In this document: one piece after another, positions 2,646-55,182 of the stretch | Numbering within the stretch: position 1 is the stretch's first letter | How the letters are laid out: each line of letters begins with the position of its first letter | IMG/VR virus record: IMGVR_UViG_2710264769_000001 | DNA from: a virus | DNA: 63,417 bases | Direction: 5' to 3' (one strand) | Notes under the pieces: generated by a model | Seen by the model: the letters and a program-made list of their open reading frames with translations, nothing else | What the model was told of the DNA's origin: nothing | Database searches by the model: none | Made by a program: the position numbers and the translations under genes

Positions 2646-2646
2646 A

Positions 2647-5071: not shown

Positions 5072-5686
5072 ATGGCAAGACAAATATTAGCAGTTGAAGG
5101 CGGCAATATCAAGGGAATAGCTAACCTCTATAAGATGATCAACATAGACATAAACGACCTGTCTCCGGAACGGCCATGGACGCCGGATGGGGTGGACTAT
5201 TTGATTGAGCTTTACAAGCTGGGTTATTCTGCTGAAGAAATGGCAATAGAGATGAACCGGACTACAGGGAACGTGATCGGAAAAATCTATGACCTGGGAG
5301 AAGAAGGAAAGCTGTCTTTGGAAATGTGGGGATCGAAGAAGAATGGGAAGAAGCTGGCAAGAGGGCCTTTGGGGGATGTATGTGGGATATTTGTGGGGGA
5401 GGGGGTGAAGGCTGTGGCAGTAACGAAATGGGCCTACCTGACAGTTACAAAAACGAAGTTAATCTTTGAGGGGCCTTACAATAGTGCTTTCAAGGATGCA
5501 TTGAAGGACGAAATTCCTATGGGCTGTCGTGAATGGGACGGCGAAAAGTGGATTATTGGAAAGGACTATCTTGATGATCTGGAAACCCTGATAAAAGCAT
5601 ATTATCCCCGATGCTGCAAAGTGGAGGGCGGTATAATAACAAACTTGCTTACCGGGGAGCTTATGGACGATTCTTTTTACGAATAA
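5072..5686 (+). CDS. Hypothetical protein with a GcrA-like helix-turn-helix segment
   Basis: WTPDGVDYLIELYKLGYSAEEMAIEMNRTTGNVIGKIYDLG resembles the GcrA N-terminal DNA-binding motif. GGGAGG lies 7 nt before ATG 5072. Confidence 0.5.
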   Translation: MARQILAVEGGNIKGIANLYKMINIDINDLSPERPWTPDGVDYLIELYKLGYSAEEMAIEMNRTTGNVIGKIYDLGEEGKLSLEMWGSKKNGKKLARGPLGDVCGIFVGEGVKAVAVTKWAYLTVTKTKLIFEGPYNSAFKDALKDEIPMGCREWDGEKWIIGKDYLDDLETLIKAYYPRCCKVEGGIITNLLTGELMDDSFYE

Positions 5687-17141: not shown

Positions 17142-17206
17142 ATAAACAATACTTAAAATTTCTACTGTTTTAGTGGCTTTAGGTAACTTTTTGAAGGCGG
17201 TGAAGT

Positions 17207-28267: not shown

Positions 28268-28996
28268 ATGTTTACTCCTGCAAGAGTAACGGCAGGGTTC
28301 GAGCCTTTGTTCCATAAGATGGGATTTGCGCCGAACCCTGTTCCTTATGAGCTTACCCCCAACACAGAGTTTAAAATGGGGGATATGGTTGTACTCCAAT
28401 ACGGCAAGGTGGTCAGGGCAACTGCTGCCAGCGTTTCCGGTATTTTAGGCGTTATGGCCCATGATGTAAAGCAGGCCGATAATCCGGCTGCCGGGCTAAC
28501 CAAGGGCCTGGTCTATGACAATCCCAATACTATTTTCAGGGTAAGTATTGCGGATATGGGCAACCGGGACTATACGGCAACTGGCGGTGCTTCTGACGGC
28601 ACAACGGTAACGGCGGCGGAAGCAACCCTGACTACTGCCAATGTTTTCCGTGGGGCAATGCTTTACGTCTATGAAGGCACCAATAAAGGCGCTATCAGGA
28701 CGGTATCCGCCTATTCCAACGCTGCCAGTGTGGGGACATGGACTGTCACATATCCTTTCCCCAACCAATGCGATACAACTACCAAGTTTATCGTGTTTGG
28801 CGGAGCTAGCGAGGCTAACGACGGCATTAACGTTGGAAAAGCCGGTATTGTGCTAAAAGACCATGCCAGAGTAGATGGGGACGCCGCAGCGATCTCCAGC
28901 GGCAATCCGGTAGGCCCTCTGGTCTGCTTGGCACTTGATCCGGCCAACCTGTGGATGGATGTAATGATCCGTGCTTCAAAGCACCTCTTCGGATAA
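28268..28996 (+). CDS. Head structural protein (possible decoration/auxiliary capsid protein)
   Basis: 242-aa beta-rich ORF immediately upstream of the capsid gene, with a near-identical RBS context (agcgaggtgaa). Confidence 0.45.
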   Translation: MFTPARVTAGFEPLFHKMGFAPNPVPYELTPNTEFKMGDMVVLQYGKVVRATAASVSGILGVMAHDVKQADNPAAGLTKGLVYDNPNTIFRVSIADMGNRDYTATGGASDGTTVTAAEATLTTANVFRGAMLYVYEGTNKGAIRTVSAYSNAASVGTWTVTYPFPNQCDTTTKFIVFGGASEANDGINVGKAGIVLKDHARVDGDAAAISSGNPVGPLVCLALDPANLWMDVMIRASKHLFG

Positions 28997-29044
28997 GGGG
29001 TGCTTTTCCTTTTCCAATTCAAATTTTAGCGAGGTGAACGAAAG

Positions 29045-29893
29045 ATGATGCTCTCTGAAAACTGGCAGGAGCTTATGCTGCCGATCTTACGCAGAATCTT
29101 CGATAAACATAAGAAAAAGCTCAAAGACTATGTTTTGGTAATCTTTAATGTGGAAACTTCAACCAAGGCGATAGAGCAACACTTAGGAATCGGCTCTCTC
29201 GGCCTTATGACCCCTTGGGATGAATCTGGGCGTCAGGTAGCCTACGAGGACATCCACAAAGGCTTCCTGGCGACCTATCGGCATAAGAAATATTCCAAGG
29301 GCCTTGAAATCGAGAGAGAACTTCCCGAGGACGATCAATACGGCGAGATCAAGAAGCGGGTAAGAATCCTGGTGAGGACTGTTTATTATACCAGGCAGTT
29401 CTATGCTGCTTCCGTGTTCAACAATGCTTTTAATGACCTTTATCCCGGGCCGGATGGAAAGGCATTGTGTAGCGCAGCACATCCCTATAGTCCTACCAAC
29501 AGCGCAACGTTTGGCAATTACGGTGATCCTGATTCACTTGGGTCTACCTTGAAGCTCAATGCCGATAACGTTGAGAAGGTCCGTAACGCCATGATGGAAT
29601 GGAAGGACGATAAGGGCAATCTGTTGGCTATAAGCCCGGATACCCTGGTTGTGCCTCCCAAGTTACGTAAACCTGCTATGGTTATTGCTGATACAGACAA
29701 AGAACCGGATACCAGCGATAACAACGTTAACATCTGGAAAGGTGCTTTAGATGTGATTGAGTGGCCGTTCCTGACCAATCCTAATGCCTGGTTTATGATG
29801 GACAGGGAAAGGGCTAAAATGTATGCTAACTGGTTTGACCGCAGGGTTGCCAAGCTGGAGCAGGATAGGGAGAACTTCGATACAGAAGTGGGT
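29045..29893 (+). CDS. Major capsid protein (Mu gpT-like), exon 1
   Basis: ...STKAIEQHLGIGSLGLMTPWDESGRQVAYEDIHKGFLATYRHKKYSKGLEIERELPEDDQYGEI... fits the gpT-like capsid pattern. The proposed 5' splice site follows GGU at 29893. Confidence 0.7.
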
Positions 29894-30162
29894 AAACATA
29901 CTTGCCCGGTTGCAGGGAAACTTGCAGCATAAAACAGCGGGGAAAAAACGGGAAAGCTAAGGCACAGAGCTATGCCGACCCGAAGGGAAGTCAATAAGTA
30001 ACGTTATTGACACACGCAGAGAGCAGAGGGTGAAACCGCTAACGGAATATAATCCCTCCACGAGTCCCCGCCACCCTAACGTAAAGACGAGGGTGAAAAG
30101 GTGCTCCGATACCCCGACGAAAGACGGGGAGCATAGGATAAAGAGCCTGTGCATAACAAATG
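29894..30162 (+). ncRNA. Group I intron (IC3-like core, no ORF)
   Basis: P1 UGGGU(29889-93)/GCCCG(29904-08). P10 CUU(29901-03)/AGG(30163-65). P2 29909-14/29923-28. P3 GCGGGG(29937-42)/CCCCGC(30066-71). A6 J3/4. P4 CGGG/CCCG. GGGAAAGCUAA. P6 29990-97/30004-11. P7 G-A-GAGCA(30019-25)/UGCUC-C(30102-07). P8 CACCCUAACGUAAAGACGAGGGUG(30072-95). P9 30112-16/30125-29. Terminal G at 30162. Confidence 0.7.
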
Positions 30163-30237
30163 AGGTATAAGGTTGTTAATAGGTTCAGCTTTGGCTGGGA
30201 CGAGCCAACCTTCATTTGGGGGGCAATTAACCCCTAA
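30163..30237 (+). CDS. Major capsid protein, exon 2
   Basis: RYKVVNRFSFGWDEPTFIWGAINP-stop has no start codon or RBS of its own, is in frame with exon 1 after removing 269 nt, and is followed by a terminator. Confidence 0.65.
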   Translation, partial: RYKVVNRFSFGWDEPTFIWGAINP

Positions 30238-30260
30238 TTAATATCAACATATCAACTAAG

Positions 30261-30295
30261 TAAGGGGAGCTTTGACAAGCTCCCCTTATCTTTGA
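30261..30295 (+). terminator. Rho-independent terminator after the capsid gene
   Basis: taaggggagc-tttgacaa-gctcccctta followed by tcttt. Confidence 0.75.
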
Positions 30296-35065: not shown

Positions 35066-35234
35066 GGCATGAAGGTTGAAAAGAAGATGGGCAAAGTTAA
35101 GATAACCGCTTCCAAGCAGAATGAGGAAATTAAGAGGTTAAAAGTAGAGGTTGAGAAGTTAAAGAAAACTAAGTAATACACATCTGGTCTAAGAAGTGTA
35201 GCAGTTTAACAATTTGCCCACAGGAGGCAACTGT

Positions 35235-36245
35235 ATGAAACACACTGAGAATAGCCAGGATACCGGCTATTTTTTAGTTTCTCAGCTAATAGACGAAGTA
35301 GAAGAACTGTTTGGCCCTGTAGATAGAAACAAACTGGAGGCAAGGTTGTCGGCTATTCTATCATTATACGATATTGCACCTAAAAAACCAGAAGCAGGCC
35401 ATCCAGATATTATTGAGAAAATGAAGTCTTTTTTGTCTGCTAAGAAGATAGAAGGGTTTTCTCGCAACACGTTGAGCGGTTATGGTATCGAGTTAAGAAT
35501 ATTTGCTGAAAGTATGCCAAAACCAGTTGACGAAATTGAGACAAATGATATTCGGATGTTCTTAAGTAAGTTTAACCACTTGAAACCAAGTTCTTTGGCA
35601 AAGAAGCTGTTTGTCTTAAAAAGTTTTTTCGGTTGGCTTACGGAAGAAGAGATAATTCAACGTGATCCTACACGAAAAATAAAACCGCCTAAAACCGAAA
35701 AAAGGATGCCGAAATCTCTAACTATCGGGGAACTGGAAATGTTGAGAGAACACTGCAAAACACCGAGAGAGAGGGCATTTATTGAAGTATTCTATGCTAC
35801 TGGTGGCAGGCTTACTGAAGTGTACCAGCTAAATAAAGAAGATGTTGACTGGCAAAATCTTTCTATTAGGGTATTGGGCAAGGGAAGCAAAGAACGAGAA
35901 GTTTATCTTTCTACTAGGGCAGCTTATCATTTACAGAAATACTTAAACTCCAGAAGTGATAACTGCACAGCATTGTTTGTAACCGAAAGAAAACCGTACA
36001 GAAGATTATCTAGAAGAGGCATCCAAAGAGAAATAAAAGCCATAGCCGCTCGAGCCGGAATAGAAAAGAATGTCCATCCGCACGTGCTCAGGCATACTTT
36101 TGCTACGCTTACTTTAAATAACGGGGCAGAACTGGCAGTTTTACAGCAATTGTTGGGGCATGAATCTCCTGTTACTACGCAGGTTTATGCTCAGGTAACA
36201 GATGAAAGGAAAAGGACTACACACAAAAAGTACTTAATTCAATAG
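35235..36245 (+). CDS. Tyrosine recombinase, XerC/XerD-like (second recombinase of the genome)
   Basis: ATGGRLTEV (Arg), HVLRHTFAT (HxxR), LGHESPVTTQVYAQV (His/Tyr). Own RBS (ACAGGAGG) and own terminator. Confidence 0.85.
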   Translation: MKHTENSQDTGYFLVSQLIDEVEELFGPVDRNKLEARLSAILSLYDIAPKKPEAGHPDIIEKMKSFLSAKKIEGFSRNTLSGYGIELRIFAESMPKPVDEIETNDIRMFLSKFNHLKPSSLAKKLFVLKSFFGWLTEEEIIQRDPTRKIKPPKTEKRMPKSLTIGELEMLREHCKTPRERAFIEVFYATGGRLTEVYQLNKEDVDWQNLSIRVLGKGSKEREVYLSTRAAYHLQKYLNSRSDNCTALFVTERKPYRRLSRRGIQREIKAIAARAGIEKNVHPHVLRHTFATLTLNNGAELAVLQQLLGHESPVTTQVYAQVTDERKRTTHKKYLIQ

Positions 36246-41445: not shown

Positions 41446-44400
41446 ATGGCTATTGACCGCAGAAGTGATCCATTAGGGCTTTATGCAGCGTACGAAGAAA
41501 ACAAAAAAAAGAAGAAACGGCCAGTATTTGAGCCGGATCTTTCCAGACGAACTATGCCAACAACTCCAGAAACCCCTGTAATACCCACAACGGCCATAAG
41601 CACCCCTGATTTATGGCAAAAATCAGCACCGGTACAGCAGGTTGTTCCGGCTAAACCATTTGTGCCACAAGTGCCTGCTACAGAAATGGGCAGGTATGCG
41701 GAACCTGATATAATAAAACCTACAGTAATGCCTGATGTTGTTACAGGCGCAGCTCCAACGGCAAAGCAGGTTATAGAAAACCTAAAGGCAAAACAGATTA
41801 TCCCTTCTATTCCGACAACTCCTACATTTGACTATGAATGGAAATGGGAATATTTGCGGCCACCTACAACTCCTACAGATGTAAAGGAAAAAGCACAAAT
41901 AGACAAAACGCCTCCTGATTGGTTTAAAAGGCTTATGAGCGGCAAAGATATTTTTGGTATTCAGGCAAAAAGACAGGAAATGCTTGAAGAAGGATGGGAG
42001 CCTACTACTCCACAGGCACTTGAAGAATGGTCCCAAAGGCTTAGGGCTTTTGAGCGGACTAAGCCAGGGCAGTATTTGCTCCGCATGAGCGAAATGGCGG
42101 GGCAAATAGCGGCCCCTGGAAAGAGCGTTTATGAAGAAATGCCTTCTACTGGTAACGAAGCACTTGACTTTACTGCCGATATTATAGGTGTAATTACAGG
42201 TTATATGGTTCCTGGCGGTATAGGCCGCATGGGTTATGAAATTGTATCCCCTGCTACAAATATGGTTATGGGACGTCTTTTGACAGGCAAAGTAGGGGAA
42301 CGTGTGCTTAGAACTATGGCCAGCCAGAAAGTTTTGCAGGAGTTGGGCCCTGTCCCTTCGCCGCTTAAAGATATTGTCGGCAGGGTTGCTGCAAGGGCGG
42401 TTATCGGCGGCCTTACATCAGGCATTAATTTTTCTGGCCGCAGATTGCTTTTAGATGCTTTACAGCTTCAAGGGATTCCCGATGCAAAAAAGATACAAGA
42501 GATAGCGAAAAATTTAACTAAAGATTTTGGCTGGGGCTTTTTGACCGGAGCTGTTCTTGGCGGAGGCAGGGCGATTATCAAGGAAGCGTCGCCGTACTTT
42601 AATAAAGAAAGCATGGTGCGCCAGGGATACAGGGAAATAAAAGATCCTGCCACTAAAAAGGGACTGGATATTTACTGGAGAGAAACCAGGGTCCAAAAGG
42701 GTGAAAGACCATCAATAGAATTTGTAGTAGTAAAACCGACAGAAGAAACTTTACAGGCAAGAATAGATTATCTGTATAAATATTCACAGACGGAATGGGC
42801 GCAAACACCCAGAGGCAGGGAAATGATTGCCCGGATTAAAGATACTGTAGATGCCTATGAAATAGGCAAAACCGGCGCATTTGCAATCATTCCAGAAGCT
42901 CCATATACAAAAGAATGGCCTATGAGAGCGCCCAGGCCGGAAGTGCAGGAAAAGGTGCAGAGATTACAGGCCGTTACTCGTGGCGAAATTCCTCCCACTG
43001 GACAGGTTCCAACTACTGCTACCGGTTTATATGGAGAAAAAGTCGAATTACCCTATGTTGGACGGCGACAGCAGGCCCCATCAAAGTTTCCGGAATTTAA
43101 AGTTTTACCAACCGATGTGGGCAAACTGCAACCCATGACAGCTCCCATTGCCGGAGGGCCTATCATAAGCCCTTCACAGCTACGGCAACTTGTAAGAGAA
43201 GGCACTGCCAAAAGCACAAAAGAGATTAACGATGCTACTATTTTAGCTTATCAGAAGGCGGTAGAACAGGGCCTTGGGCATAAAGAAGCCCGGAGCATAG
43301 TCCAAAATATTGTTGATACTTTCAGGCAGGTTGGGGCAAGGCTGAATACAGAAAACGTAGCAAAGTATTTTGAAAATATAAATGCTGGTATGGCCCCTGC
43401 GGAAGCTGTAAAAATGGTAGCAGAAAGGCCGGATAAAATTGGGCCAACTGCTGTTTACCGTGATCCGTATCAAATGACCCAGGAAGAATATGTCGCCAAA
43501 AAGGTTAAAGAAGGAGTGTCCCGGGATGCGGCTGAGAGAGAGCACTATGAGGCTGTAGCCGAAGCGATCCGCGCGGACAGGGTTGTAACGCCTGCGGCTG
43601 TTGCCAGTTATCCTGATTTAGAGAAAATATTGGAAGAAAAAATAGCAAAGCGCACAGAAGAAATGAAGGCGGTTGAAATTGCAAAGGCGAAGCCGGAAGT
43701 TAAGCCTGAACCCAAGCCTGCCGAAGTACCGGCGAAGGAACCGTGGCAGATGACCAGGAAGGAATACATGGCAAAAGGTATAATACCTTTGCCTGTAGAC
43801 CATCCTTTGCAGGTTAAAGCTGAAAATGCAATAAAGGCTTTGAAAGAAGCAAAGAAAAAATTGCTTGATGTTTCCCCACACAAATATGGTGATGATGCTA
43901 TAGAAAAGTCTTTACGTTCAACAAAAGTTCCGCGTGAAATTAAAGAAGCGTACAATATCGCCAAAAAAGAGTATCGAAGCGCAGTCAATGCGGTTGAACA
44001 AGAGGCAGATCATAAAACATTAGTTGAGCGAGCCCTTGCCGAAGGCAAGCCCATACCTCCTGAAGTATTGGCCGATTATCCCGATCTGAAGCCTGTGGAG
44101 GCACCCGCCAGAACCATTGACGATCTCAACCTTGGCCGCAGTGGTAAAGCTGCTTTAAAGAAATGGGCTGCAAATGAAAGAATAATGGTGGACTTGGATA
44201 AACCAGATGATCCTGATACAAAACTATTCGTTGAGTTCTTCAATAAGTATTATCAAGCAGGGTTAGAGGGAGTTAGCAAAAGAAACATTCCCTTTGATGA
44301 GGTAGATACTGGCTTTCCTCCTTTCCTGGCTGATGAATTTTATGAGGCAGGTGAAAAGGACGCTGCAAGAACAAAACCAAAAGAGGAACCAGAAAAGCCT

Positions 44401-47400
44401 GCCGGTGAACCCGGTAAGCCATGGTGGGAAAAAGATGTAGATTGGACTACTCCGGAAGAATACAAAGGGGAGCCAGGTATTCCTATCAGGATTAGACCTG
44501 TCGTTTCAAGTACCGGCAAAGGATATTCCCTGATGGACGCCAACGGTGTCCGCTTTGGCACTATCCGTGAATCATGGGAAGAAGCTGTTGCGGCGGCAAA
44601 CAAGGAGAACCGCAGGCTATATGAGGCAGAACAGATAAGGCTTAAAGCAATCCAGGAAAAGGAGAAACAGGAGGCCCCTGCCCCTACAGAGAAAACGCCT
44701 TCCGGTATCACATGGAGGCTGAATGATGAAAAGGGCGGCGTAGAGATTAAGTTTCCAGAAAGACCGGATGATGCGATAATCCAGCGTCTTAGAAATGCCG
44801 GTTTTAGATGGAGTAAGCCTCAAAAACTCTGGTATGCAAAACAAAGTGACGCCCGGATTGCACTGGCTAAGGAACTGGCTGGGGAACAGGAAAAACCGGA
44901 AGTGAAAGAACCTTCCAAAAAAGAATTGAAACCACCAGAAGATTCTGGTAAAATGGAAGCAGAAAAAGTTCCTGTCCCCGAAGGCAGGGTTGCCGATAAT
45001 ATAGACTGGCTCAAGGGCGCCGCTTCTGATGCCAGGAAGAGGCTTGCGGCTCGCAGGGCAAAGCGGGAAGCCGAAGCACAGAAAGAGGAAATGCCGGAAG
45101 AGCTTTCCTTCGCTGTCGGCAAGGCAGGCGGCCTGCCGATGGATGATCTTGTTGACTATGCTATTGTAGGGGCAGAACTCCTTGCTACCGAGAATCCCTC
45201 TTATGACGAATGGGCAGAGGTTATGCTGGAGGAATTTGGGCCAGCAATCAAGCTCTTTTTAAGAGGCATTTACGGCCAGTCCAAGGCCATGCTGGAAATG
45301 ACCCCTGCCGAAATTAATGAAATGGTTGGTATTACCCAAAGGGAGGAGGTAACGGGTCTTGAGGATCGAAGAGAACCTGATGGCACCCAGCGCGGTGAAG
45401 AGGCACTGGAAAGAGTTCCGTCCGAAGATGTACAAAGAACTGAAGGAGAGCGGGGAGCTCGACCAGACCGTAAGGAAAGCGATAAGGCTGACGATAGAGG
45501 ACATCGCAAAACTGCAAGACCAGGGACTGACGTACGAACAGGCGTGGGAGATGACGAGAAACAACTGGATGTACCTGCCGAGCGAGAAGGAGGCACCGGA
45601 GCTGGGCATGAATCTCCGGACCCTGAAATTACCACCCCTGGAAGAAGTATAACCAGCGAGAACTACAGAATCAGGCCGGAAGATCAGCTTGATACTCGTT
45701 CCAAGCTACAAAAACTGAATGACAATATCAGGGCAATCCGCTTAATGAAAGACCTGGTTGAAAGAAATCAGCCTGCTACTCCCGAAGAGCAGGCTATTCT
45801 TATTAAATACGTTGGTTGGGGCTTCTACAAAGACGTATTTGATAAGTCCTATGCGGAGAAGCATGGCCTTATGGAGCAGTATAATGCTTTAAAAGAACTG
45901 CTGACCGAAGAAGAGTTTATGTCGGCAAGGGCAACTACGCCTTTTGCGCATTATACGTCACCGGAAATTATTAACGCTATGTATGAAGTGCTCCAAAGGA
46001 TCGGGTTTGATGGCGGCAGGATCCTTGAACCGGCTATGGGTATCGGCCATTTCTTTGGTATGATGCCTGAAAACCTTGCCAAGAAAAGCTGGCTCACCGG
46101 GGTTGAGATAGATACGGTTTCCGGGAATATTGCCAAGCTCTTGTATCCCAGGGCCAATATCAATGTCATGGGCTACGAGGAATTTGACGTTCCTTACGAC
46201 AAGAGAAAGCTGCTCAATGAAAACTATTATGACCTGGCAATATCTAACGTGCCGTTTAACCGGACGCCTCCTGCCAAAGATGTGCGTTACAAGAATATTG
46301 CCGATAACCTGCATAACTTTTTCTTCGCCAAGGCGGTGGATCAGGTTCGTCCTGGCGGGATAGTAGCGTTTGTTACCTCACGTTACACGATGGACAGCCG
46401 TGATAGAAGTTTCCGGGAATACCTAAATGAGCGTGCCGATTTTCTTGGTGCTGTTCGTTTGCACAACGAGGCTTTTAAAGGCATAGCGGAAACCCAGGTA
46501 GTGACCGATATAATTTTCTTGCGTAAGCGTGCCGTGGGAGAGCCTTATGCCGGTGAGGAATGGCTGGAAAACAAAGATGTAACCGTAGAAAAGAACAGGG
46601 AAGCGATCAATGAGTATTATGTAGATCATCCTGAAATGGTAATGGGAGAAACAGCGTTTATCCGGGGCATGTATTATGCCGGTGAATACGCCGTTGTGCC
46701 GGATGGCAGGGATCTGGCTCAATCTGTAATAGATGCGCTTACAGAAAAACTCCCCAGGAATGCTTATAAGCAAAGGCCGGTCCACGAAGCGACCGAAGCT
46801 CCGAAAATAGAAGACTTTTTAATTGCGCCACCTGAAACACAAGAGGGATCTATCGTTATCCAGAAGAACAAGCTGATGATTGCACAACTGGATGATAACG
46901 GCCAGCTTGTTTTGATGCCTGCCGACAAGGTTCTTAATTTTACCCCAGGCGGCACAGTTGAAAAGAGAATTCGGGGTATGATAAAGATCCGGGATATTTA
47001 TAATGAACTACTTAACCTGGAATTGAGTGACGGATCAGAAGCAGAAATAGAAAAGCTAAGGAAAACGCTCAACAAGGTTTATGATGATTTTGTTAAAAAC
47101 TATGGCTATATAAATACTGCGGCTAACAGCAGGGCGTTTGCCGAAGATAATTCCTATTACAGAATAGCAGGGCTTGAAGTTCAAGATCCGGAAACCGGAA
47201 AGTATGTAAAGAATGATGTATTTAAGAAGCGCACTGTCCGGAAATATGAGACTAAGACCTCTGCAGAGAACAGCAAGGAAGGGCTGCTCATTACGCTAAA
47301 TGAACGTGGTGTAGTTGATATTAACCATATTGCCAGCTTGACCGGGAAAACTTCTGATCAAGTTGCAGAAGAACTAACAGGCTTTATCTTTAAAGATCCG

Positions 47401-50400
47401 GAAAAGGGATGGGTTACTGCAGACGAGTATCTTTCCGGAAACGTCCGGCAGAAACTGCGTATTGCTGAGGATGCCGCAAAACATGATAAAAGCTATGAAG
47501 CAAATGTAAAGGCACTTAAAGAAGTGCAGCCAGCTGATCTTACACCGGATAAGATATACGTTAAGCTTGGGGTTCCCTGGATAGGTAAAGATGATGTTAG
47601 AGACTTCCTTGTGCATTTACTGGACATTAAGAGTTGGGAAGCGGATGAGGTAAGAGTAACGCATGAGACAAGAAGCGGTATTTGGGGAATAGACTTCAAG
47701 GACAAAGGCGTAAAGACAAGCGTTAGGAACTCCACGGCCAATAGGAAAACGTGGGGTTTTGTTTTTCGTGGTTTTGATACATCAACGGGGCGCTCATTTA
47801 CTATCGAAAAGAGCGCTCTTGATATAATCGAATCCTTGCTCAACAGCCGCAGCCTCAATGCAACGTTTAAGCGAGTAACTTATGATCCTGTAGAAGGCAG
47901 AGAAAAAGAAAAAACTGTAACCCACCAGGCTGCTACTTTGGCCCTTCGTGAAAAAGGAAGGGAGATTGAGCAAGAATTTAAGGAATGGCTCTGGAGCGAC
48001 AGCGAAAGGGCTGAACGGTTGGCTAAGGTTTACAACTGGGAATTTAACAATTCGGTAATGCGAAACTTTGATGGCAGCCATCTTACCTTCCCGGGGATGA
48101 ACCCGGCAATTACCCTGGGGCCGCACCAAAAGGACATGGTATGGCGCATAGTACAATCAAGAGGGGCATTAGCTCACCACGTTGCCGGTTCGGGGAAAAC
48201 CTTTGTCATGGTCGCTTCAGCAATGGAAATGAAGCGTTTGGGAATTGCTAATAAGCCTATTGTTGTAACCAGACCGAGCATCATCGGCCAGTTTGCGGCA
48301 GAAGCAAGAAGGCTTTATCCAGCAGCTAAGATTTTGGCATACAGTCAAAAAGATATGGCAGCAGATAAGCGCAAGAAAGCTCTGGCGCGCATTGCTGCAG
48401 GTGATTGGGATCTTGTGATTATGCCCCATTCCAGCTTCAAGATGGTTCCTTTGTCCGGGGAATATGTTGAGAGGATCATAAACCGGGAGCTTGCAAATCT
48501 GGAGAGGTCTATCCAGGAGCAGAGAAGGGCATTAGGACAGGAAGGGAAAGCGATTGTTCGCAAAATGGAAAATGCCCGGAATGCCCTGGAGAAAAAACTT
48601 CGTGAGCACTTGGCAAAACTGGAAAGACAGCAGGATGCCGGTTTTATGACTTTTGAGGAATCCGGTATAGACGCTCTATTTGTGGACGAATCCCATTACT
48701 ACAAAAATCTTTTTTATAATACCAGTATGAACAACATTGGCAACATGGGATCGCCTCAAGGCTCTATGCAGGCATTTGATATGTTTACTAAAACGGATTA
48801 TGTCCGTAACTTACGTGACGGAAGCGGAATAGTTTTTGCTTCCGGAACGCCGATTTCTAACTCCATGGTGGAAATGTATGCCCTGCTGCGATATCTTGCG
48901 CCACAGGAGCTGGAGGCAAGGGATTTGCACAGCTTTGATGCCTGGGCCAGTGTTTTTGGCAGAGCGGTAACAGCCTCAGAGCTAAATCCATCAGGGAAGG
49001 GTTTCCGGCCTAAAGTCCGGTTTGCTCAGTTTGTAAACCTGCCGGAGCTTTTACAGCTTTATCATAGTTTCGCTGATGTGGTAAACCATGAAAGATTCCT
49101 GGAGCTTAACCCTCATATTAAGTTGCCTAAGATAGCAACAGGCCAGCGCATACTTATTTCAGCACAGCCTTCGGAAGAGATCATGGATTACATCGAAGAG
49201 CTCGACGACAGGTGCGAAGCGATTAAAGCAGGACATGTAGACCCTTCAGAGGATAACTTCCTGAAAGTGGTCAATGATGGCAGGCTCGTGGCCCTGTATC
49301 CCCCTCTCCGGGGCCTTATGGACTACAAGGACAGCCGGATCAACCTGGCTATAAACAATATATTTGATATTTGGAAGAAGTACGAAAAAGACAGGCTCAC
49401 ACAGCTTGCCTTTCTAGATCTCTCCGTACCAAAAGGGAAATCCAAAGAGCAAGAAGAGGCTGATATTGACGAAGAGGCCGAGGATGTTGTATTTGAGGAT
49501 CTCGAAGAAGATCAGCAGACCGTCTATGAGGTTATCCGCAGAAAACTGCTGGCCAAAGGAGTGCCTGCAGACGAGATCGCTTTCATCCATGATTACAAGA
49601 CAGACAAGCAGCGCCTTGAGCTGTTTGAGAAGGTGAAGCGCGGCGATATCCGCATCCTGCTTGGATCTACTTCAAAGATGGGCGAAGGGATGAATGTCCA
49701 GGACAAGGTTATTGCGGTCCACCATCTGGATTGTCCCTGGAAGCCCTCTGAGATAGAGCAACGGGAAAGAAGAGGTATCCGGCAAGGCAACCAGAACGAA
49801 GAAGTGTTTATCTACACTTACGGCACAGAACGAACTTTCGATATTTTCATGTGGCAGCTCATTTCTATAAAACAGAAGAACTTCAAGCAGGTAGAAACCA
49901 GAAACATTAACCCGGAAATGAGGGAAATGGAGAACTTCGACGAGATACAAATGTCGTCGAAGCAAATGAGTGCCATATTAACCGGCGATCCTAAATATAT
50001 GGAATATACGGAAATTGAGCAACGTCTAATCGAGCTTGCGGCCATTGAAAGTGGTTATATCGGCAAAAGAGAGGCTATAAAACGGGAGATTAGTTCTGCT
50101 TCTATGTCGCTCGAAGGCGCAAAAAAAGTGGCCGAAAAATCCAAACAAGATTTGGAAAGAGCAAAAAATATCAAAGGTGATTTGTTTGAGATCAAACTGT
50201 TTGACAAGGTTTACAAGGACAGGAAAGAGGCCGGTAAAATAATTCAAGGCGTAGAGGGTCCTTTAAAGAATGTTTTCCATAAGTATGATAAATTTAGGCA
50301 GGAATCTTTTTACACCCCCAAACAATTTTTAGACGAAATAAACAAACTCCAAGGCATTAACGCTCACCTCTTTAATGCTGAGAAATATAAAGAGGGCATT

Positions 50401-53400
50401 TCAGAAGAAGAATTAAATGCAGTAATTATTCCGCTGGGAGAATTTGCGGGCTTTCCCCTTAGTTTAAGATTGCATTATCAATATGGTGGAGCGTTAATCT
50501 TTGAGGGCAGCAACTTTTATAAAGTCCTGCTTGGTGAGACCGGGTACAACACTATCCGCAGCTTAGAGATCCGTGCTCAAGGCATAAAAAAGGATTATAC
50601 CGACAGGGTTAAATTTATCGAATCCCTCACAAAGCGACTTGAAGAACTGAAAGCAGAAGCGGCAAAACCCTTTAAATACGCCGATGAACTTAAAAAGCTG
50701 AGAAGGCGCAAAGAAGAACTGGCTCAGGAGCTTGGGATCGACCAGCTCGAAGGGGAAGTAATGGTTGAAGATGCTTATGTGCCGGAGACTTATGGCGTTG
50801 GAGTCATCGAAATAAGTCTTATGATAGACGGCATAAAGCAAAAGGTTGAAGTTACCGGCAAAGAAGTTGCTCCGGGCATAGCAATAAATAAAGGTGTGAA
50901 AAATGAGAAAAAGGATATACGAGATCTTTGGAGGGTTACTCATCTTCAATCAGGGTTGCGCTTCGGCACCTATTACGATACCATGCAGACAGCGGAGAAG
51001 GCCGCTTTAGCTATTTCAAAACTTGCTGATTGGAATGTGCCGTTAAGCGACATAAGTAATGAAATAAAACAAGAGGCTACTAAGCTTGCCGAAGATTTTT
51101 CAAAGAAGGAGCAGCAGGCGCAGGCCGAACAAGAACTTGAAGAACGCAGTTATGACATTTTCCTCAACCGAACCGAATATCTAAGCACAGAGGTTTCGGC
51201 TCCGGCAAAAGAGCTGAGACATGCGCCTGAGAGGACATCTCAGAAGCAAAAAGCAGGCGGCCTCACTCTCCTGGTTAAGCTGGTTGATAGGGGAGTAATC
51301 GAAAGACCAGCTTTCCATTTCGACGTAGGAGGCGGCAGGTATGATCTTGGTATCGAATACCTGAAGGAAAACGGGATAGAATGTATCCTTTGGGACCCGG
51401 AGGCCCGATCACCGGAATACAACAAGGCCAGCCTTGAGCGGCTAAAACAGGTAGGGGGCGCTGAAACAGCGTCCCTTAATAACGTACTGAATGTTTTACC
51501 TGACAAGGAAAGCCGCTTGGATGCTATTCGGTTCATGTTCCAGCACCTGCAGACCGGCGGCCTTGCCATTATCACTGTCCATCAGGGCGATAAAACTGGA
51601 GTGTCTAAAAAGGTTGTTGTTGGCAATCAGTATAACTGGCAGCTTAACCGGCCTTTGGAAAGCTACCTGCCGGAGATTAAAGAAGCTCTTGGCAATGCGG
51701 CAAACATCGAAATGAAATACAACGCTTTTCTTATCACAAAAAAGCGCAGGTTGGATTTAACGAGGCTGGCTAAGAGGGTTTCTGCGGAAAAAGCTGCGGC
51801 TGAAAAGGCCGAAGAGAAAGCGGAAAAGGAACTATTAAAAGTTCACAAAGAACCGTGGCAGGAGGAGCTGGATGATTCCATGCCTGAAGTAATGCACAGC
51901 ATTGCTAAGAAGGATGCCAGAGCATTTGCTAAAGCTACGGGCGCAAGAGAGGGCGAAACCGGCAAACAGGCATGGGAGCGGGTCACAAGAAAGCAGGATA
52001 TATTGAGAAAAATAGACAGAGTAATCGCTACCTATAAAGGCCATGTCAGAGGGCCGATGGCGGGATTTTTCCGGTCTAAAGAAAAGTATATACGCATTAA
52101 AACCAAATTCTTTGCGGATTTGGAAATTCTGGCGCACGAATTGGGCCATTTTCTTGACGGAGAGCTAAAGTTGTTCTCGAAAAGGAATATAAACAAGGTA
52201 ATGGGAGAAAAGGCGTTTGATAGTATTTCCCAGGAACTGGTGCTTAATTCTCCTTATGTGCAAGAAACGCTCTTGAAAGTCCGGCCCGAGGCCAGTTTCA
52301 AGCTCCAGGTTCATGAGGGTATAGCCGACTTTATTAACTTTTATATAAACGAGCCGGAAAAGGCCAAAGAGCTTATGCCGGGATTCTATGAGTACTTTGA
52401 CAAGATGATTCATACGCAGTCGGAGCTTTTAGATAAGGTGGAAGAAATCCGGGCCATAGTTGACAAGTACTATCGCCAGCCGGATATTGCCCTGGTTAAT
52501 TCCTTTATCGGCAGCGAAAAGGAAAAAACTATATCCTGGTCAAAGGTAAAAGATTGGTGGGAGCAGGTTTACTACAACATATTTGACGATTCGGCCAGGA
52601 TAGCCTATTACATGGAGCAACTCTACGGTGGGCGCAAAGTTGCCGGTGAAGGAGCTACGAAAGTGGTCGATCCGGAGAAAAATGCGTGGCTGATGTATCG
52701 GATGGCAAAAGGAGCGCAGATGGCGGCGCATAACTTTATTCGCAGGGGCGGGGGGCAGATTGAATACGGAACAAAGAAAAAGATAGGCCCTTCGCTCTAT
52801 GAAATAACTGATCCGATTCACCAGATGGGCAAGGATGAGGATGGCGTTCCGCATTTTGTCAAATTCACCGCTTACCTGGTATCGAAAATGGCTATTTATC
52901 GAGAAGATGAGCTTGGTGTCATCTCCGGGATGGATAAGGCGCAGCTTGAAGCGGCCAGGAGGCTTGTAAAAGAAGTCGAAGCCTCCAAATATTTTAAGAA
53001 ATATGACAAGGCCAGAGAAGAGATGAGAGACTTCTGCAGGTTTGTTTTAAGGCAGCTTGTCAGAGGCGGTATATTAAGCGAAGAAGGCTATGAAACCATA
53101 ATTAAAAAATATCCTGATATATACATTCCCTTCTACCGTGTCCGGGATGACCGCAAAGTTAAAAAAAGTGAAGGCCAGCATATCGCCAATATTTCCAAGG
53201 GAGTAATCACCTACAAGGGCGCTATGTTGCCGATTCAAGATCCATGGCAGAGTATTATCAGGCAGACCCACATCTTTACTATATTGGCGGACAAAAACCT
53301 TGCCATGCAAGCACTCGTCGATATGGAGCAAATCGCCGGTGGGACAGGAGAATGGTTCTCCAGCATACCTACACCAGTCAAGGTTACAAAAGCTACGATT

Positions 53401-55182
53401 GGGGAGCTGCTCACTATGCTGGGGATTGATGTTGATGATTCCTCAGCGTTAGATGTTCTCGGCGAATTGTTGAACGAAGCGGCGCAGGGCAAAGAAGTAG
53501 ATATGGGAACGCTTGTAAACATCTTTCGACCCGAACGTTTTGGAGATGTCCGCAAGAACGTGGTTATGGTATGGCGTGAGGGAAAACCGCAGTTCTATGA
53601 GTTCAAGGACAAACAGCTTTTCAATGCGATCATGCACATTGATTCGGAGACGGCTGGATGGTTTGTGGATACTTTTCTCAGACCTGCGGCGAAGCTGTTA
53701 AGGATAGGAGCAACATGGAACCCCAGGTTTCTCGGTTTTAACGCCTGGAGAGATGCGTGGCAGACTCCTATTTACAGCGAATATCAAAACCTGCCGCTTT
53801 TAGGATTGTTTAAAGGTTTATACCACATTGCCAAAAACGATGAAGTTTACCGGGATTTCCTTGCTGATAGAGCCGGTATGAGCACACAGCTTTCCTACGA
53901 TAAGGACTATCTGACCGAAGGATACCATCATATTTTGAGAAGCAGATGGCAGGAAATGATGAAGATAGCGATTAACCCCATCGGGCTTCTTGGCAGGGCT
54001 TCAAGCATGATAGAGTATGCAACCAACGTAGGGGAATACATGGCGGCACGCAGAAAAGGCGCACACTGGATAACCGGCAGTTTTGCCGGTCGTGATATAA
54101 CAGTAGATCACCAGGTTCATGGCAGTAAAACAGCTATAATCCGAGGAAGTACTCCATTCTTCAATGCAGCGATAAGGGGCCATGATAAGATGCGCAGAGC
54201 CTTCCAGAAGAATCCCGCACGTTTTATTTTAAGGGCGCTTTTGATTTTGACCTTGCCTACCGTGTTACTTTATCTACTAAACCGGAATAATCCTTATTAT
54301 CAGGAGCTTCCAGAGTGGCGGAAAAACCTTTTCTGGAATTACCCTCTCCCTGTGGGCGGCAGTTTCACAAGAACAAAATGGTTTTTAACAGTTCCCAGGC
54401 CATTCTTGATGGGGATTATTTTTGGCGCTTTTCCTGAAAACCTGATGCGCCAGCTTGATAAGAAAAACAGGGCTTCCTGGAACAATCTGTCCGAGGATCT
54501 GCTGAAAACAGCAGTGCCAAACTATATGCCTGCGGCCATAGGGCCTATACTGGAGCAGTGGGGTAACTTGAGATTCTATAATGATGCTCCCGTTGTCCCT
54601 GCCAGTGAAGCCGGGAGAGCACCGGAGTTTCAATATGGTGCTTATACCAGCGAAGTTGCAAAGCTCCTGGGTAAAAAGCTCAAGTTGTCACCCAGGAGAA
54701 TAGATGCTTTAATACAAGGCTATACGGCAGGGGTGGGCAGGCACGTCATAAGAGCAGTAGATGAGCTGCTTTATCTCACAGGCGTTGCAGACCGGAAGTT
54801 GCGGCCTAAAGGGACGATTCAGGACATTCCTGTCCTTGGGGATATTATAGCTACCTCGGGGGCTTATGGCTCTGCTTCTGTGGACAGGTTCTACAAGGAT
54901 CTGAACAGGGCAGAAGTTTTGGCCGCCAGGGAACAGAGCTATCTTGAAAGAGGTCAAACGCCGCCTAAACTTTCGGCAAAGGATCAGGCGCTGCTTTGGG
55001 ACCTTGAATATATGCGCTCTTTACAAAGGGAACTGGCAGGGGTACGCAGCATTATGAGAGAAATCCATGAAAGCGCAGATTATACGCCGGAAGAAAAAAG
55101 AAAGCTGCTTGACTTCTATGAACTAACAATTGTCAACCAGGTGCGGGTACATTACAGCTTACAGCCGATACCGATTGAATAG
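41446..55182 (+). CDS. Giant polyvalent virion protein (4,578 aa): DarB-like N6-MTase, SF2 helicase, second SAM-MTase-like domain, HExxH motif, C-terminal TM segment
   Basis: ENYRI...IKYVGWG...ILEPAMGIGHFFG (46021-60), SNVPFN (46241-60). Helicase motifs GSGKT (48181-200), DESH (48683-97), QRERRGIRQGN (49757-90). HFDVGGGRYD (51316-45). LAHELGHFLD (52129-60). Hydrophobic ILRALLILTLPTVLLYLL (54222-80). Uninterrupted 13.7 kb ORF with RBS GAAAGGAGGGG. Confidence 0.85.
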   Translation: MAIDRRSDPLGLYAAYEENKKKKKRPVFEPDLSRRTMPTTPETPVIPTTAISTPDLWQKSAPVQQVVPAKPFVPQVPATEMGRYAEPDIIKPTVMPDVVTGAAPTAKQVIENLKAKQIIPSIPTTPTFDYEWKWEYLRPPTTPTDVKEKAQIDKTPPDWFKRLMSGKDIFGIQAKRQEMLEEGWEPTTPQALEEWSQRLRAFERTKPGQYLLRMSEMAGQIAAPGKSVYEEMPSTGNEALDFTADIIGVITGYMVPGGIGRMGYEIVSPATNMVMGRLLTGKVGERVLRTMASQKVLQELGPVPSPLKDIVGRVAARAVIGGLTSGINFSGRRLLLDALQLQGIPDAKKIQEIAKNLTKDFGWGFLTGAVLGGGRAIIKEASPYFNKESMVRQGYREIKDPATKKGLDIYWRETRVQKGERPSIEFVVVKPTEETLQARIDYLYKYSQTEWAQTPRGREMIARIKDTVDAYEIGKTGAFAIIPEAPYTKEWPMRAPRPEVQEKVQRLQAVTRGEIPPTGQVPTTATGLYGEKVELPYVGRRQQAPSKFPEFKVLPTDVGKLQPMTAPIAGGPIISPSQLRQLVREGTAKSTKEINDATILAYQKAVEQGLGHKEARSIVQNIVDTFRQVGARLNTENVAKYFENINAGMAPAEAVKMVAERPDKIGPTAVYRDPYQMTQEEYVAKKVKEGVSRDAAEREHYEAVAEAIRADRVVTPAAVASYPDLEKILEEKIAKRTEEMKAVEIAKAKPEVKPEPKPAEVPAKEPWQMTRKEYMAKGIIPLPVDHPLQVKAENAIKALKEAKKKLLDVSPHKYGDDAIEKSLRSTKVPREIKEAYNIAKKEYRSAVNAVEQEADHKTLVERALAEGKPIPPEVLADYPDLKPVEAPARTIDDLNLGRSGKAALKKWAANERIMVDLDKPDDPDTKLFVEFFNKYYQAGLEGVSKRNIPFDEVDTGFPPFLADEFYEAGEKDAARTKPKEEPEKPAGEPGKPWWEKDVDWTTPEEYKGEPGIPIRIRPVVSSTGKGYSLMDANGVRFGTIRESWEEAVAAANKENRRLYEAEQIRLKAIQEKEKQEAPAPTEKTPSGITWRLNDEKGGVEIKFPERPDDAIIQRLRNAGFRWSKPQKLWYAKQSDARIALAKELAGEQEKPEVKEPSKKELKPPEDSGKMEAEKVPVPEGRVADNIDWLKGAASDARKRLAARRAKREAEAQKEEMPEELSFAVGKAGGLPMDDLVDYAIVGAELLATENPSYDEWAEVMLEEFGPAIKLFLRGIYGQSKAMLEMTPAEINEMVGITQREEVTGLEDRREPDGTQRGEEALERVPSEDVQRTEGERGARPDRKESDKADDRGHRKTARPGTDVRTGVGDDEKQLDVPAEREGGTGAGHESPDPEITTPGRSITSENYRIRPEDQLDTRSKLQKLNDNIRAIRLMKDLVERNQPATPEEQAILIKYVGWGFYKDVFDKSYAEKHGLMEQYNALKELLTEEEFMSARATTPFAHYTSPEIINAMYEVLQRIGFDGGRILEPAMGIGHFFGMMPENLAKKSWLTGVEIDTVSGNIAKLLYPRANINVMGYEEFDVPYDKRKLLNENYYDLAISNVPFNRTPPAKDVRYKNIADNLHNFFFAKAVDQVRPGGIVAFVTSRYTMDSRDRSFREYLNERADFLGAVRLHNEAFKGIAETQVVTDIIFLRKRAVGEPYAGEEWLENKDVTVEKNREAINEYYVDHPEMVMGETAFIRGMYYAGEYAVVPDGRDLAQSVIDALTEKLPRNAYKQRPVHEATEAPKIEDFLIAPPETQEGSIVIQKNKLMIAQLDDNGQLVLMPADKVLNFTPGGTVEKRIRGMIKIRDIYNELLNLELSDGSEAEIEKLRKTLNKVYDDFVKNYGYINTAANSRAFAEDNSYYRIAGLEVQDPETGKYVKNDVFKKRTVRKYETKTSAENSKEGLLITLNERGVVDINHIASLTGKTSDQVAEELTGFIFKDPEKGWVTADEYLSGNVRQKLRIAEDAAKHDKSYEANVKALKEVQPADLTPDKIYVKLGVPWIGKDDVRDFLVHLLDIKSWEADEVRVTHETRSGIWGIDFKDKGVKTSVRNSTANRKTWGFVFRGFDTSTGRSFTIEKSALDIIESLLNSRSLNATFKRVTYDPVEGREKEKTVTHQAATLALREKGREIEQEFKEWLWSDSERAERLAKVYNWEFNNSVMRNFDGSHLTFPGMNPAITLGPHQKDMVWRIVQSRGALAHHVAGSGKTFVMVASAMEMKRLGIANKPIVVTRPSIIGQFAAEARRLYPAAKILAYSQKDMAADKRKKALARIAAGDWDLVIMPHSSFKMVPLSGEYVERIINRELANLERSIQEQRRALGQEGKAIVRKMENARNALEKKLREHLAKLERQQDAGFMTFEESGIDALFVDESHYYKNLFYNTSMNNIGNMGSPQGSMQAFDMFTKTDYVRNLRDGSGIVFASGTPISNSMVEMYALLRYLAPQELEARDLHSFDAWASVFGRAVTASELNPSGKGFRPKVRFAQFVNLPELLQLYHSFADVVNHERFLELNPHIKLPKIATGQRILISAQPSEEIMDYIEELDDRCEAIKAGHVDPSEDNFLKVVNDGRLVALYPPLRGLMDYKDSRINLAINNIFDIWKKYEKDRLTQLAFLDLSVPKGKSKEQEEADIDEEAEDVVFEDLEEDQQTVYEVIRRKLLAKGVPADEIAFIHDYKTDKQRLELFEKVKRGDIRILLGSTSKMGEGMNVQDKVIAVHHLDCPWKPSEIEQRERRGIRQGNQNEEVFIYTYGTERTFDIFMWQLISIKQKNFKQVETRNINPEMREMENFDEIQMSSKQMSAILTGDPKYMEYTEIEQRLIELAAIESGYIGKREAIKREISSASMSLEGAKKVAEKSKQDLERAKNIKGDLFEIKLFDKVYKDRKEAGKIIQGVEGPLKNVFHKYDKFRQESFYTPKQFLDEINKLQGINAHLFNAEKYKEGISEEELNAVIIPLGEFAGFPLSLRLHYQYGGALIFEGSNFYKVLLGETGYNTIRSLEIRAQGIKKDYTDRVKFIESLTKRLEELKAEAAKPFKYADELKKLRRRKEELAQELGIDQLEGEVMVEDAYVPETYGVGVIEISLMIDGIKQKVEVTGKEVAPGIAINKGVKNEKKDIRDLWRVTHLQSGLRFGTYYDTMQTAEKAALAISKLADWNVPLSDISNEIKQEATKLAEDFSKKEQQAQAEQELEERSYDIFLNRTEYLSTEVSAPAKELRHAPERTSQKQKAGGLTLLVKLVDRGVIERPAFHFDVGGGRYDLGIEYLKENGIECILWDPEARSPEYNKASLERLKQVGGAETASLNNVLNVLPDKESRLDAIRFMFQHLQTGGLAIITVHQGDKTGVSKKVVVGNQYNWQLNRPLESYLPEIKEALGNAANIEMKYNAFLITKKRRLDLTRLAKRVSAEKAAAEKAEEKAEKELLKVHKEPWQEELDDSMPEVMHSIAKKDARAFAKATGAREGETGKQAWERVTRKQDILRKIDRVIATYKGHVRGPMAGFFRSKEKYIRIKTKFFADLEILAHELGHFLDGELKLFSKRNINKVMGEKAFDSISQELVLNSPYVQETLLKVRPEASFKLQVHEGIADFINFYINEPEKAKELMPGFYEYFDKMIHTQSELLDKVEEIRAIVDKYYRQPDIALVNSFIGSEKEKTISWSKVKDWWEQVYYNIFDDSARIAYYMEQLYGGRKVAGEGATKVVDPEKNAWLMYRMAKGAQMAAHNFIRRGGGQIEYGTKKKIGPSLYEITDPIHQMGKDEDGVPHFVKFTAYLVSKMAIYREDELGVISGMDKAQLEAARRLVKEVEASKYFKKYDKAREEMRDFCRFVLRQLVRGGILSEEGYETIIKKYPDIYIPFYRVRDDRKVKKSEGQHIANISKGVITYKGAMLPIQDPWQSIIRQTHIFTILADKNLAMQALVDMEQIAGGTGEWFSSIPTPVKVTKATIGELLTMLGIDVDDSSALDVLGELLNEAAQGKEVDMGTLVNIFRPERFGDVRKNVVMVWREGKPQFYEFKDKQLFNAIMHIDSETAGWFVDTFLRPAAKLLRIGATWNPRFLGFNAWRDAWQTPIYSEYQNLPLLGLFKGLYHIAKNDEVYRDFLADRAGMSTQLSYDKDYLTEGYHHILRSRWQEMMKIAINPIGLLGRASSMIEYATNVGEYMAARRKGAHWITGSFAGRDITVDHQVHGSKTAIIRGSTPFFNAAIRGHDKMRRAFQKNPARFILRALLILTLPTVLLYLLNRNNPYYQELPEWRKNLFWNYPLPVGGSFTRTKWFLTVPRPFLMGIIFGAFPENLMRQLDKKNRASWNNLSEDLLKTAVPNYMPAAIGPILEQWGNLRFYNDAPVVPASEAGRAPEFQYGAYTSEVAKLLGKKLKLSPRRIDALIQGYTAGVGRHVIRAVDELLYLTGVADRKLRPKGTIQDIPVLGDIIATSGAYGSASVDRFYKDLNRAEVLAAREQSYLERGQTPPKLSAKDQALLWDLEYMRSLQRELAGVRSIMREIHESADYTPEEKRKLLDFYELTIVNQVRVHYSLQPIPIE
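45359..45652 (+). CDS. Candidate nested +1-frame ORF inside the giant gene (97 aa)
   Basis: GGGAGGAGG (45341-49) lies 9 nt before TTG 45359. Translation ...KRHWKEFRPKMYKELKESGELDQTVRKAIRLTIEDIAKLQDQGLTYEQAWEMTRNNWMYLPSEKE looks like a folded helical domain. The main frame here is an R/E/D/G-rich linker. Confidence 0.35.
   Translation: MRIEENLMAPSAVKRHWKEFRPKMYKELKESGELDQTVRKAIRLTIEDIAKLQDQGLTYEQAWEMTRNNWMYLPSEKEAPELGMNLRTLKLPPLEEV

Follow-up and report, generated by a model that had tools for sequence, protein, structure and literature searches.

Group I introns have been described before in the capsid genes of phages. The major head protein gene of Lactococcus phage Tuc2009 (mp4) is annotated as being split by one (PMC3706429, PMC2504315), and reverse transcription PCR together with N-terminal sequencing has proven the splicing of the capsid intron of mycobacteriophage LittleE, which has a U at position -1 and a terminal G (PMC3706429). 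Here, we analyse a stretch of 63,417 nucleotides (nt) from the IMG/VR virus record IMGVR_UViG_2710264769_000001 (henceforth the window, by which we mean this whole stretch), in which positions 29894..30162 very probably represent a group I intron, devoid of an open reading frame (ORF), that interrupts the gene for the major capsid protein in a temperate phage or prophage and is spliced to give a capsid protein of 307 amino acids (aa). We show below that the interruption is exact and keeps the frame, and we document the group I secondary structure together with covariation among relatives.

The window intron is one more example of a phage capsid-gene intron. A preliminary description made from the sequence alone had called an IC3-type, ORF-less intron in such a gene unusual, a view that is not supported in the light of the two published cases and of an intron family that is common in viral contigs. 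Both cases differ from the window intron. The Tuc2009 intron contains the same 20-nt receptor hairpin (discussed below) but carries orf38, has the hairpin ~61 nt from its 5' splice site instead of at P8, and resides in an unrelated capsid family; the LittleE intron, compared by its description, is 820 nt long, carries an endonuclease ORF and belongs to a high-GC actinophage. As far as our searches show, the window intron is the first group I intron noted in the gpT-like capsid family, and it combines features of more than one subgroup.

An interruption between two codons of the capsid gene

The first exon (29045..29893; this and all other features lie on the + strand unless stated otherwise) comprises 283 codons of a Mu gpT-like/Phage_capsid_4 major head protein and ends with GAA GUG GGU, placing a U at position -1. 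Read without splicing, the ORF extends to 29932, encodes 295 aa and terminates in ...GKHTCPVAGKLAA (in a longer view, ...DTEVGKHTCPVAGKLAA), and the first plausible gene downstream of it begins at 30313. This ORF matched Mu-like_gpT (PF10124, 3.9e-19), Phage_capsid_4 (PF25209, 3.2e-10) and PHROG 371 ('major head protein'). The second exon (30163..30237; 24 codons and a stop) encodes RYKVVNRFSFGWDEPTFIWGAINP*, and deletion of the 269 nt that separate the two exons keeps the frame and produces a 307-aa capsid with the junction ...FDTEVG|RYKVV....

The spliced protein, used as a query, retrieved 231 proteins (E <= 1e-5), and among the best 120 of these nearly all were ~300 aa long, with 98-100% query coverage and 53-88% identity. 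All 23 aligned homologues ran uninterrupted across the exon junction (e.g., P0001, ...ENFDTEVGRYKVVNRFSFGWDDPSFVWGAINP), and three residues encoded by exon 2 (R290, S292 and G294) were invariant among them. The match to the Phage_capsid_4 profile reached position 249 of 262 with the spliced protein and only position 213 with the unspliced ORF. In the AlphaFold2 model, exon 2 forms two beta-strands, residues 290-295 and 301-305 (predicted local distance difference test scores of 82-90), and the junction falls in a low-confidence loop. It had been proposed beforehand that the capsid ORF ends in a non-conserved tail followed by a gap, and that removal of the insert joins the two parts in frame; both proposals were borne out, as homologues follow the spliced C-terminus and match the 307-aa product without interruption.

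Comparison with the DNA of an intron-less relative (L001, GAGGTTGGA|AAATATAAA; window, GAAGTGGGT|AGGTATAAG) shows that the insert sits exactly between codons, with the U at -1 of the occupied allele supplied by a synonymous GGT. Positions 29894 and 30163 are both A, which leaves the intron boundary ambiguous by one base; the ambiguity was resolved by the rule of a U at -1 and a terminal G. The reading frame of exon 2, earlier described as lacking both a start codon and a ribosome-binding site, is indeed without a Shine-Dalgarno sequence, but it does contain an in-frame ATG at 30160-30162, formed by the last three intron bases (AUG) and opening an ORF of 25 aa (30160..30237, MRYKVV...). Since the intron tail has the consensus ...AACAAAUG/AUUG throughout the family, this AUG appears to be incidental.

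Architecture of the intron

The 269-nt intron (29894..30162) starts with AAAC and ends with ...AACAAAUG, the terminal G being at 30162. P1 (29889..29908) is formed by exon UGGGU and intron AA (29889-29895) with UUGCCCG (29902-29908), and at the 5' splice site it has a U.G wobble, U29893.G29904. The adjoining P10 guide AUACUU (29898..29903) is complementary to the start of exon 2 (AGGUAU, 30163-30168); the CUU/AGG pairing drawn in the preliminary description is thus present, but it is not limited to 3 base pairs (bp), as 6 bp are possible, and a comparable P10 of 4-5 bp was seen by eye in two relatives (L301 and L203). P2 (29909..29928) is an 8-bp hairpin with a GAAA tetraloop (29917-29920), followed in J2/3 by a UAA stop in the frame of exon 1 (29930..29932), 12 codons into the intron; an early in-frame stop is a typical feature of such introns (PMC3984707). 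The 5' strand of P3 (GCGGGG, 29937..29942) pairs with CCCCGC (30066..30071) in a pseudoknot with P7, and is followed by J3/4 (AAAAAA, 29943-29948). P4 and P5 together span 29949..29982: P4 is made up of CGGG (29949-52) and CCCG (29979-82), J4/5 is AAA, and P5 (29956-29975) is a 20-nt hairpin with an 11-nt-type GAAA receptor (GCUAAG...CUAUGC; assigned from the sequence and from PMC2275092 and bioRxiv 10.1101/2024.05.28.596103). P5abc is absent.

Further downstream, P6 and P6a (29985..30015) consist of GGG (29985-87) opposite CAC (30013-15), with a central G.A, and an 8-bp hairpin (29990-30011). The 5' strand of P7 (30019..30025) reads G-A-GAGCA with a bulged A (30020) and pairs with UGCUCC (30102-30107); within it, G30021-C30106 is the counterpart of a family-invariant G-C pair (the putative G-binding pair). 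A P7.1-like extra hairpin of 33 nt lies between P7 and P3' (30026..30058; GAGGG...CCCUC, with conserved UGA/AAUAUAAU loop residues). P8 (CACCCUAACGUAAAGACGAGGGUG, 30072..30095) is an IC3-type GNRA receptor hairpin in which CCC/GGG is combined with an asymmetric UAA/A loop. The intron's 3' end is occupied by P9 (30112..30129; GAAA loop at 30119-30122), P9.1 (30131..30152; GCAUAGG-AUAAAGAG-CCUGUGC) and the tail AUAACAAAUG, which extends to the terminal G. Every helix that the preliminary description had listed is present, and nearly every assignment was upheld.

Minimum free energy (MFE) folding on its own recovered P1, P2, P3, P6a, the extra hairpin, P8, P9 and one more 3' hairpin. The MFE z-score of the intron was -5.95, and none of 200 shuffled sequences was equally stable. 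A local search with the Rfam model Intron_gpI (RF00028) gave a full-length match (29884..30129, model positions 1-253, 30.1 bits, E 7.5e-6). Taken with the homologue match, this E-value and the MFE z-score put both the interruption and the fold far beyond chance.

An intron family abundant in viral contigs

Relatives were sought through the P8 string CCCTAACGTAAAGNCGAGGG, which had at least 120 matches in the genome collection and at least 120 in the viral collection. Clear relatives were used to build a covariance model (R1) of the 3' half of the intron (P7, extra hairpin, P3', P8, P7', P9 and P9.1), in which P9 was kept unpaired because its architecture differs among the seeds. R1 found a single copy in the window (30012..30168, 143.7 bits; the window itself is a seed member) and dozens of matches elsewhere, with scores up to 192 bits; members of the family are plentiful in viral contigs. 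An exact core string specific to the window (GAGGGTGAAAAGGTGCTCC) had no match in the viral collection, and the three matches to another core string (AACGGGAAAGCTAAGGC) were all discarded as chance hits without group I signal.

Among 51 aligned sequences, 97.7% of the cells of the 3' half formed a standard pair, as opposed to 29-50% with the 3' partner slid. Compensatory changes occurred in 22 of its 25 pairs (attained by none of 500 shuffles), and its covariation score was 0.533, versus 0.172 when shuffled and at most 0.12 when slid. By element, P7 was paired in 100% of cells and had compensatory changes in four of six pairs, while the G-C pair beside its bulged nucleotide was invariant (47/47), as a G-binding pair would be. 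The extra hairpin showed compensatory change in four of five pairs and P9.1 in all seven; in P8, all seven pairs covaried. The P9.1 loop was AUAAAGAG/AUAAAAAG in 36 of the 51 family members.

The 5' half was judged by folding each sequence singly, without a second covariance model, because MAFFT mis-registered P2, P4 and P6 between subtypes. All seven ORF-less relatives formed the six pairs of P1, each with its own exon, and in all of them the U.G pair and the intron start AAAC were invariant. P2 had 8 bp and a GAAA or GAGA loop, with stems that differed (7/7), and P3/P3' was a helix of 6-8 bp with compensatory changes (7/7; GCGGGG/CCCCGC, AGUGGGU/AUCCACU, UCCCGUG/UGCGGGA and AGCGAGGG/CCUUUGCU). 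The topology of P4-P5 and of P6/P6a was common to the window and these seven introns, with P6 appearing in the relatives as GGU/ACC or ACC/GGU.

The host genes of R1-family relatives encode tape-measure proteins (PF10145) and NrdD, and an HNH-like coding sequence was recognized by eye inside the introns of three relatives (L294, L184 and L196). Two IMG/VR contigs held dense arrays: one (L293, 1..2229) contains at least eight complete group I introns in 2.2 kb, with 3' halves of the R1 family, and another (L292, 1488..5256) has 12 R1 matches. The exons inside these arrays are as short as ~10-30 nt, and the pattern resembles that of intron-rich huge phages (PMC12880540), from which intron-dense phages are already known.

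Subgroup affinities

The archetypal IC3 intron, that of cyanobacterial pre-tRNA-Leu(UAA) ('Syn Rz', PMC4498298), has an identical P8 string (CCCUAACGUAAAG-N-CGAGGG), likewise situated between P3' and P7'. The resemblance noted in the preliminary description proved exact: the 20-mer of the window P8 is identical at P8 of cyanobacterial tRNA-Leu(UAA) introns, and the cyanobacterial string matches sit in those genes. Both introns also share GGGAAA(C/G)CUAA at P4-J4/5-P5, P2, the absence of P5abc and the bulged nucleotide of P7. The cyanobacterial intron differs in being located in a tRNA anticodon loop rather than in an ORF, and in having neither the P7-P3' hairpin, nor the P9.1 AUAAAGAG hairpin, nor the AUAACAAAUG tail; R1 scored it at 24-36 bits, ~24 of which come from P8 (equal to what P8 alone contributes to an R1 score). 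Introns in bacterial tRNA-Tyr/Arg-like genes (L093, L124, L152, L081 and L156) share the layout of P7, P7.1-like hairpin, P3', P8 and J8/7, and reached 44-60 bits (again including ~24 from P8), but they reside in tRNA hosts and the P9.1/tail module is absent from them. Splicing these tRNA-gene introns in silico yielded tRNAs, whose anticodon identities are approximate; ARAGORN missed the intron-containing tRNA genes, the cyanobacterial control included.

The window intron has the IC3 traits of a P2, a compact core and no P5abc, in line with IC3 introns being without P5(a-d) (PMC11835236). Its P8 (CCC-UAA-CG/CG-A-GGG) agrees with the IC3 GNRA receptor as published and its L2 is GAAA (at the sequence level), the IC3 receptor being the commonest at the L2-P8 contact of group I introns; likewise, its 11-nt-type P5 receptor and L9 GAAA fit the usual L9-P5 contact (both PMC2275092; bioRxiv 10.1101/2024.05.28.596103). 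IC3 introns are also defined by having no insertion between P7 and P3', and here the window intron departs from them by its 33-nt hairpin (30026-30058), which is found also in the bacterial tRNA-gene introns L093, L124 and L081. The earlier assignment as IC3-like consequently stands for the P8 and P5 receptors, the L2 and L9 GAAA loops and the lack of P5abc, but not for the P7-P3' hairpin and the extended domain 9, which are of IA type.

The IA2 subgroup is recognised by the domain 7 hairpins P7.1 and P7.2 and by a domain 9 with P9.0, P9.1 and P9.2 (PMC4227781). Prophage introns in tape-measure and nrdD genes have been called 'typical IA2' and are homologous to introns of Twort, SPbeta and Tuc2009 (PMC2504315). 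Such Bacillota phage and prophage introns (TMP-IVS1/2 of the B. cereus group and Twort-like ones; PMC2504315, PMC4227781) reside in tape-measure or ribonucleotide reductase genes, as R1 relatives do, and share with the window intron both an inserted element in domain 7 and an extension of domain 9 (the published tape-measure introns are likened by description). In place of the full IA2 set, the window intron has a single composite hairpin in domain 7 (a 5-bp outer stem and an optional 3-bp inner stem, the inner part being missing in L147 and L229) and, in domain 9, only P9 and a conserved P9.1; P9.2 was not seen. A Twortvirinae intron aligned to R1 over P7, P9, P9.1 and the GUAACAAAAUUG tail, with 26 bits without P8. 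Aside from the P8 string, the 3' half of the window intron is about equally similar to the Twort-like staphylococcal phage intron and to the bacterial tRNA-gene introns. From these sequence comparisons, the window intron is best described as having an IC3-like core and IC3-like receptors together with IA-like peripheral elements. This agrees with published work in which phage 'IA2' is found to be heterogeneous and the 1990 subgroup scheme is considered inadequate for phage introns (PMC11878797).

The 20-nt hairpin CCCUAACGUAAAGNCGAGGG is matched at 100% identity by 133 phage records in GenBank, of which 81 are from Staphylococcus. It is off the P8 position in Tuc2009 (L352, 20280-20299), where it is the only part of the intron to match R1 (20.9 bits), and in Staphylococcus phage 110 (L353, locus 1202-1223). 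We rejected P8 homology based on the string match in Tuc2009 and the staphylococcal phages, since the hairpin is not at P8 there. It behaves as a portable receptor module, for which a string match alone is no proof of P8 homology.

Introns elsewhere in the gpT-like capsid family

A capsid homologue 57-60% identical to that of the window, from a Logan assembly (L005, SRR22388001), is interrupted at the same codon boundary (FDTEVA|KFK) by a 281-nt group I intron (5236..5516; 46.9 bits with Rfam), its exon 2 beginning with KFKSVGRFSYGF.... R1 gives no match in this intron, which therefore differs from the one in the window. The public protein P0105, which ends in ...FDTEVA, is the truncated exon-1 product of this gene. 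A second intron site (NAWF|M, residues 250/251) is occupied by a 459-nt insert (2227..2685) in four sequences (L049, L050, L051 and L067) and by one of 1185 nt (2227..3411), long enough for an ORF, in a fifth (L052); group I introns at this site scored 61.8 and 63.3 bits (L049/L052), above the Rfam gathering threshold. P0109, which ends in NAWFN, is probably another truncated capsid product. A search of metagenome and viral contigs with the junction pattern TTYGAYACNGARGTNGSTWAAC revealed no further intron-bearing capsid at the first site, only an intron-less one (L345) and chance matches.

It is possible, if rather doubtful, that these observations reflect two things at once: a formally undescribed lineage that bridges bacterial tRNA-gene IC3 and phage 'IA2' introns (with an IC3 core, the L2-P8 IC3 receptor and L9-P5 11-nt receptor contacts, a single P7.1, the P9.1 AUAAAGAG hairpin and the AUAACAAAUG tail), and a gpT-like capsid gene that is a recurrent target, with at least three independent gains at two sites and one codon boundary that two unrelated group I introns have both entered. 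If true, recurrent gains would suggest that introns invade a conserved capsid motif in a site-specific manner, through reverse splicing or with the help of a trans-acting endonuclease.

Splicing model and alternatives

From the interruption and the fold we infer catalysis and splicing in vivo, which would proceed as follows. The capsid gene would be transcribed through the intron and the RNA would fold into the P1-P10 group I architecture, whereupon exogenous guanosine would attack 3' of U29893, the U of the wobble pair in P1. The 3'-OH thereby released on exon 1 would then attack 3' of the terminal G30162, P10 holding exon 2 in line, and the ligated exons would encode the full capsid (...FDTEVG-RYKVVNRFSFGW...). 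RNA left unspliced would give the 295-aa protein, which would stop at the UAA in J2/3 and miss the two conserved C-terminal beta-strands.

Several points weigh against this model. The RF00028 score lies below the gathering threshold of 50, a gathering scan of the whole window having given no group I match. The gathering score is a model threshold and not a biological criterion, and the Rfam and GISSD models under-represent phage introns (PMC11878797). The proximal P6 (GGG/CAC with a G.A mismatch) is weak and is the sole weak element of the intron. The covariation alignment was fitted to R1 with the window among its seeds and with relatives ascertained by the exact P8 string. Finally, an intron of the same type was not found at the window site in any other capsid relative, so that direct comparison lends no support to this insertion being kept by selection. 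The sub-threshold score, the weak P6 and the solitary occurrence, together with the location in an integrase-bearing and possibly integrated phage, could also be expected of a decayed, splicing-dead intron in the capsid pseudogene of a defective prophage. We regard this as improbable: the other helices are intact and consensus-like, as are the U.G pair, the invariant G-C pair of P7, the two tetraloops and their receptors, and the terminal G; no damage is seen in exon 2, which retains its invariant residues; and the adjacent structural genes are long open ORFs, one of 4578 aa.

The in-frame ATG at 30160-30162 raises the thought of a truly split gene, whose 295-aa protein would be complemented by a separately translated peptide of 25 aa (MRYKVV...). 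Such an arrangement is very unlikely, for the ATG has no Shine-Dalgarno sequence upstream, its AUG belongs to the intron tail found throughout the family whatever the host gene, and the conserved ribozyme fold of the intervening 269 nt would be left unexplained. Least credible of all, and effectively refuted, is some other element (a group II intron, an intein, an insertion sequence or a translational bypass) or an assembly artefact, in favour of which nothing specific was found: as each of the three frames contains stops, the insert cannot be an intein, no Rfam match points to a group II intron or other element, 269 nt are far too long for a bypass, and the insertion is placed exactly between codons and bears group I hallmarks. 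A spliced, ORF-less group I intron is the explanation that we favour.

Genomic setting and mobility

The window represents a temperate phage or prophage. Its genes include a recombination module and those for TerS, TerL, a P22/SU10-type portal, the capsid, a 4578-aa polyvalent protein and two tyrosine integrases, and the genome around the intron looks intact, with neighbouring structural genes present as long open ORFs. The 4578-aa ORF (41446..55182), at the end of the structural module, has two recognisable domains, a helicase C-terminal one and LPD38 ('large polyvalent protein'). Of the tyrosine recombinase/integrase genes, one (35214..36245) lies among virion structural/tail genes on the same strand and the other (58080..59162) is on the - strand. 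Neither the intron nor window positions 17-32 kb matched any GenBank phage in blastn searches at normal thresholds.

A GC-rich 13-bp hairpin (30260..30289, -21.2 kcal/mol) is located 3' of exon 2. What had been taken for a strong terminator is a strong hairpin, but with a weak U-tract, which is why it escaped a consensus scan for terminators. A second terminator-like hairpin, with a T-rich tail, lies directly 5' of the capsid gene (28978..29006), after a 242-aa ORF, and the capsid gene may be bracketed by hairpins on both sides. The only match in the window above an Rfam threshold is a Twister-sister ribozyme (RF02681; 15881..15957, - strand, 42.4 bits versus a gathering threshold of 34, E 4.9e-6), opposite in strand to the surrounding + genes and located in a stretch (14953-17207) without an ORF of at least 150 aa.

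The intron has stops in all three frames and its longest internal ORF measures 46 aa, from which it follows that no homing endonuclease is encoded in it; nor does an endonuclease gene adjoin it, the only HNH-like signature in the window being at 2..250. The signature, a CxxC...HH...N...CxxC pattern (recognised by regular expression only), lies ~29 kb away from the intron in a partial ORF that abuts the edge of the window. The intron belongs to a widespread lineage of phages and Bacillota, characterised by IC3-type contacts (L2-P8, L9-P5) together with an IA-like P7.1 hairpin and a P9.1 extension. Lacking an endonuclease gene of its own, it would have to rely for its spread on recombination, a trans-acting endonuclease or reverse splicing.

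Implications

The window intron reveals no new mechanism. Once it is recognised, the most abundant virion protein can be annotated correctly: gene callers truncate the window capsid to the 295-aa ORF with a spurious tail and leave exon 2 unannotated, and the public homologues P0105 and, probably, P0109 are affected likewise. The intron also predicts a junction peptide, ENFDTEVGR. The Mu gpT-like capsid family hereby joins the phage structural genes invaded by group I introns, and the existence of one widespread lineage that mixes IC3- and IA-type features supports the view that the 1990 scheme fits phage introns poorly (PMC11878797).

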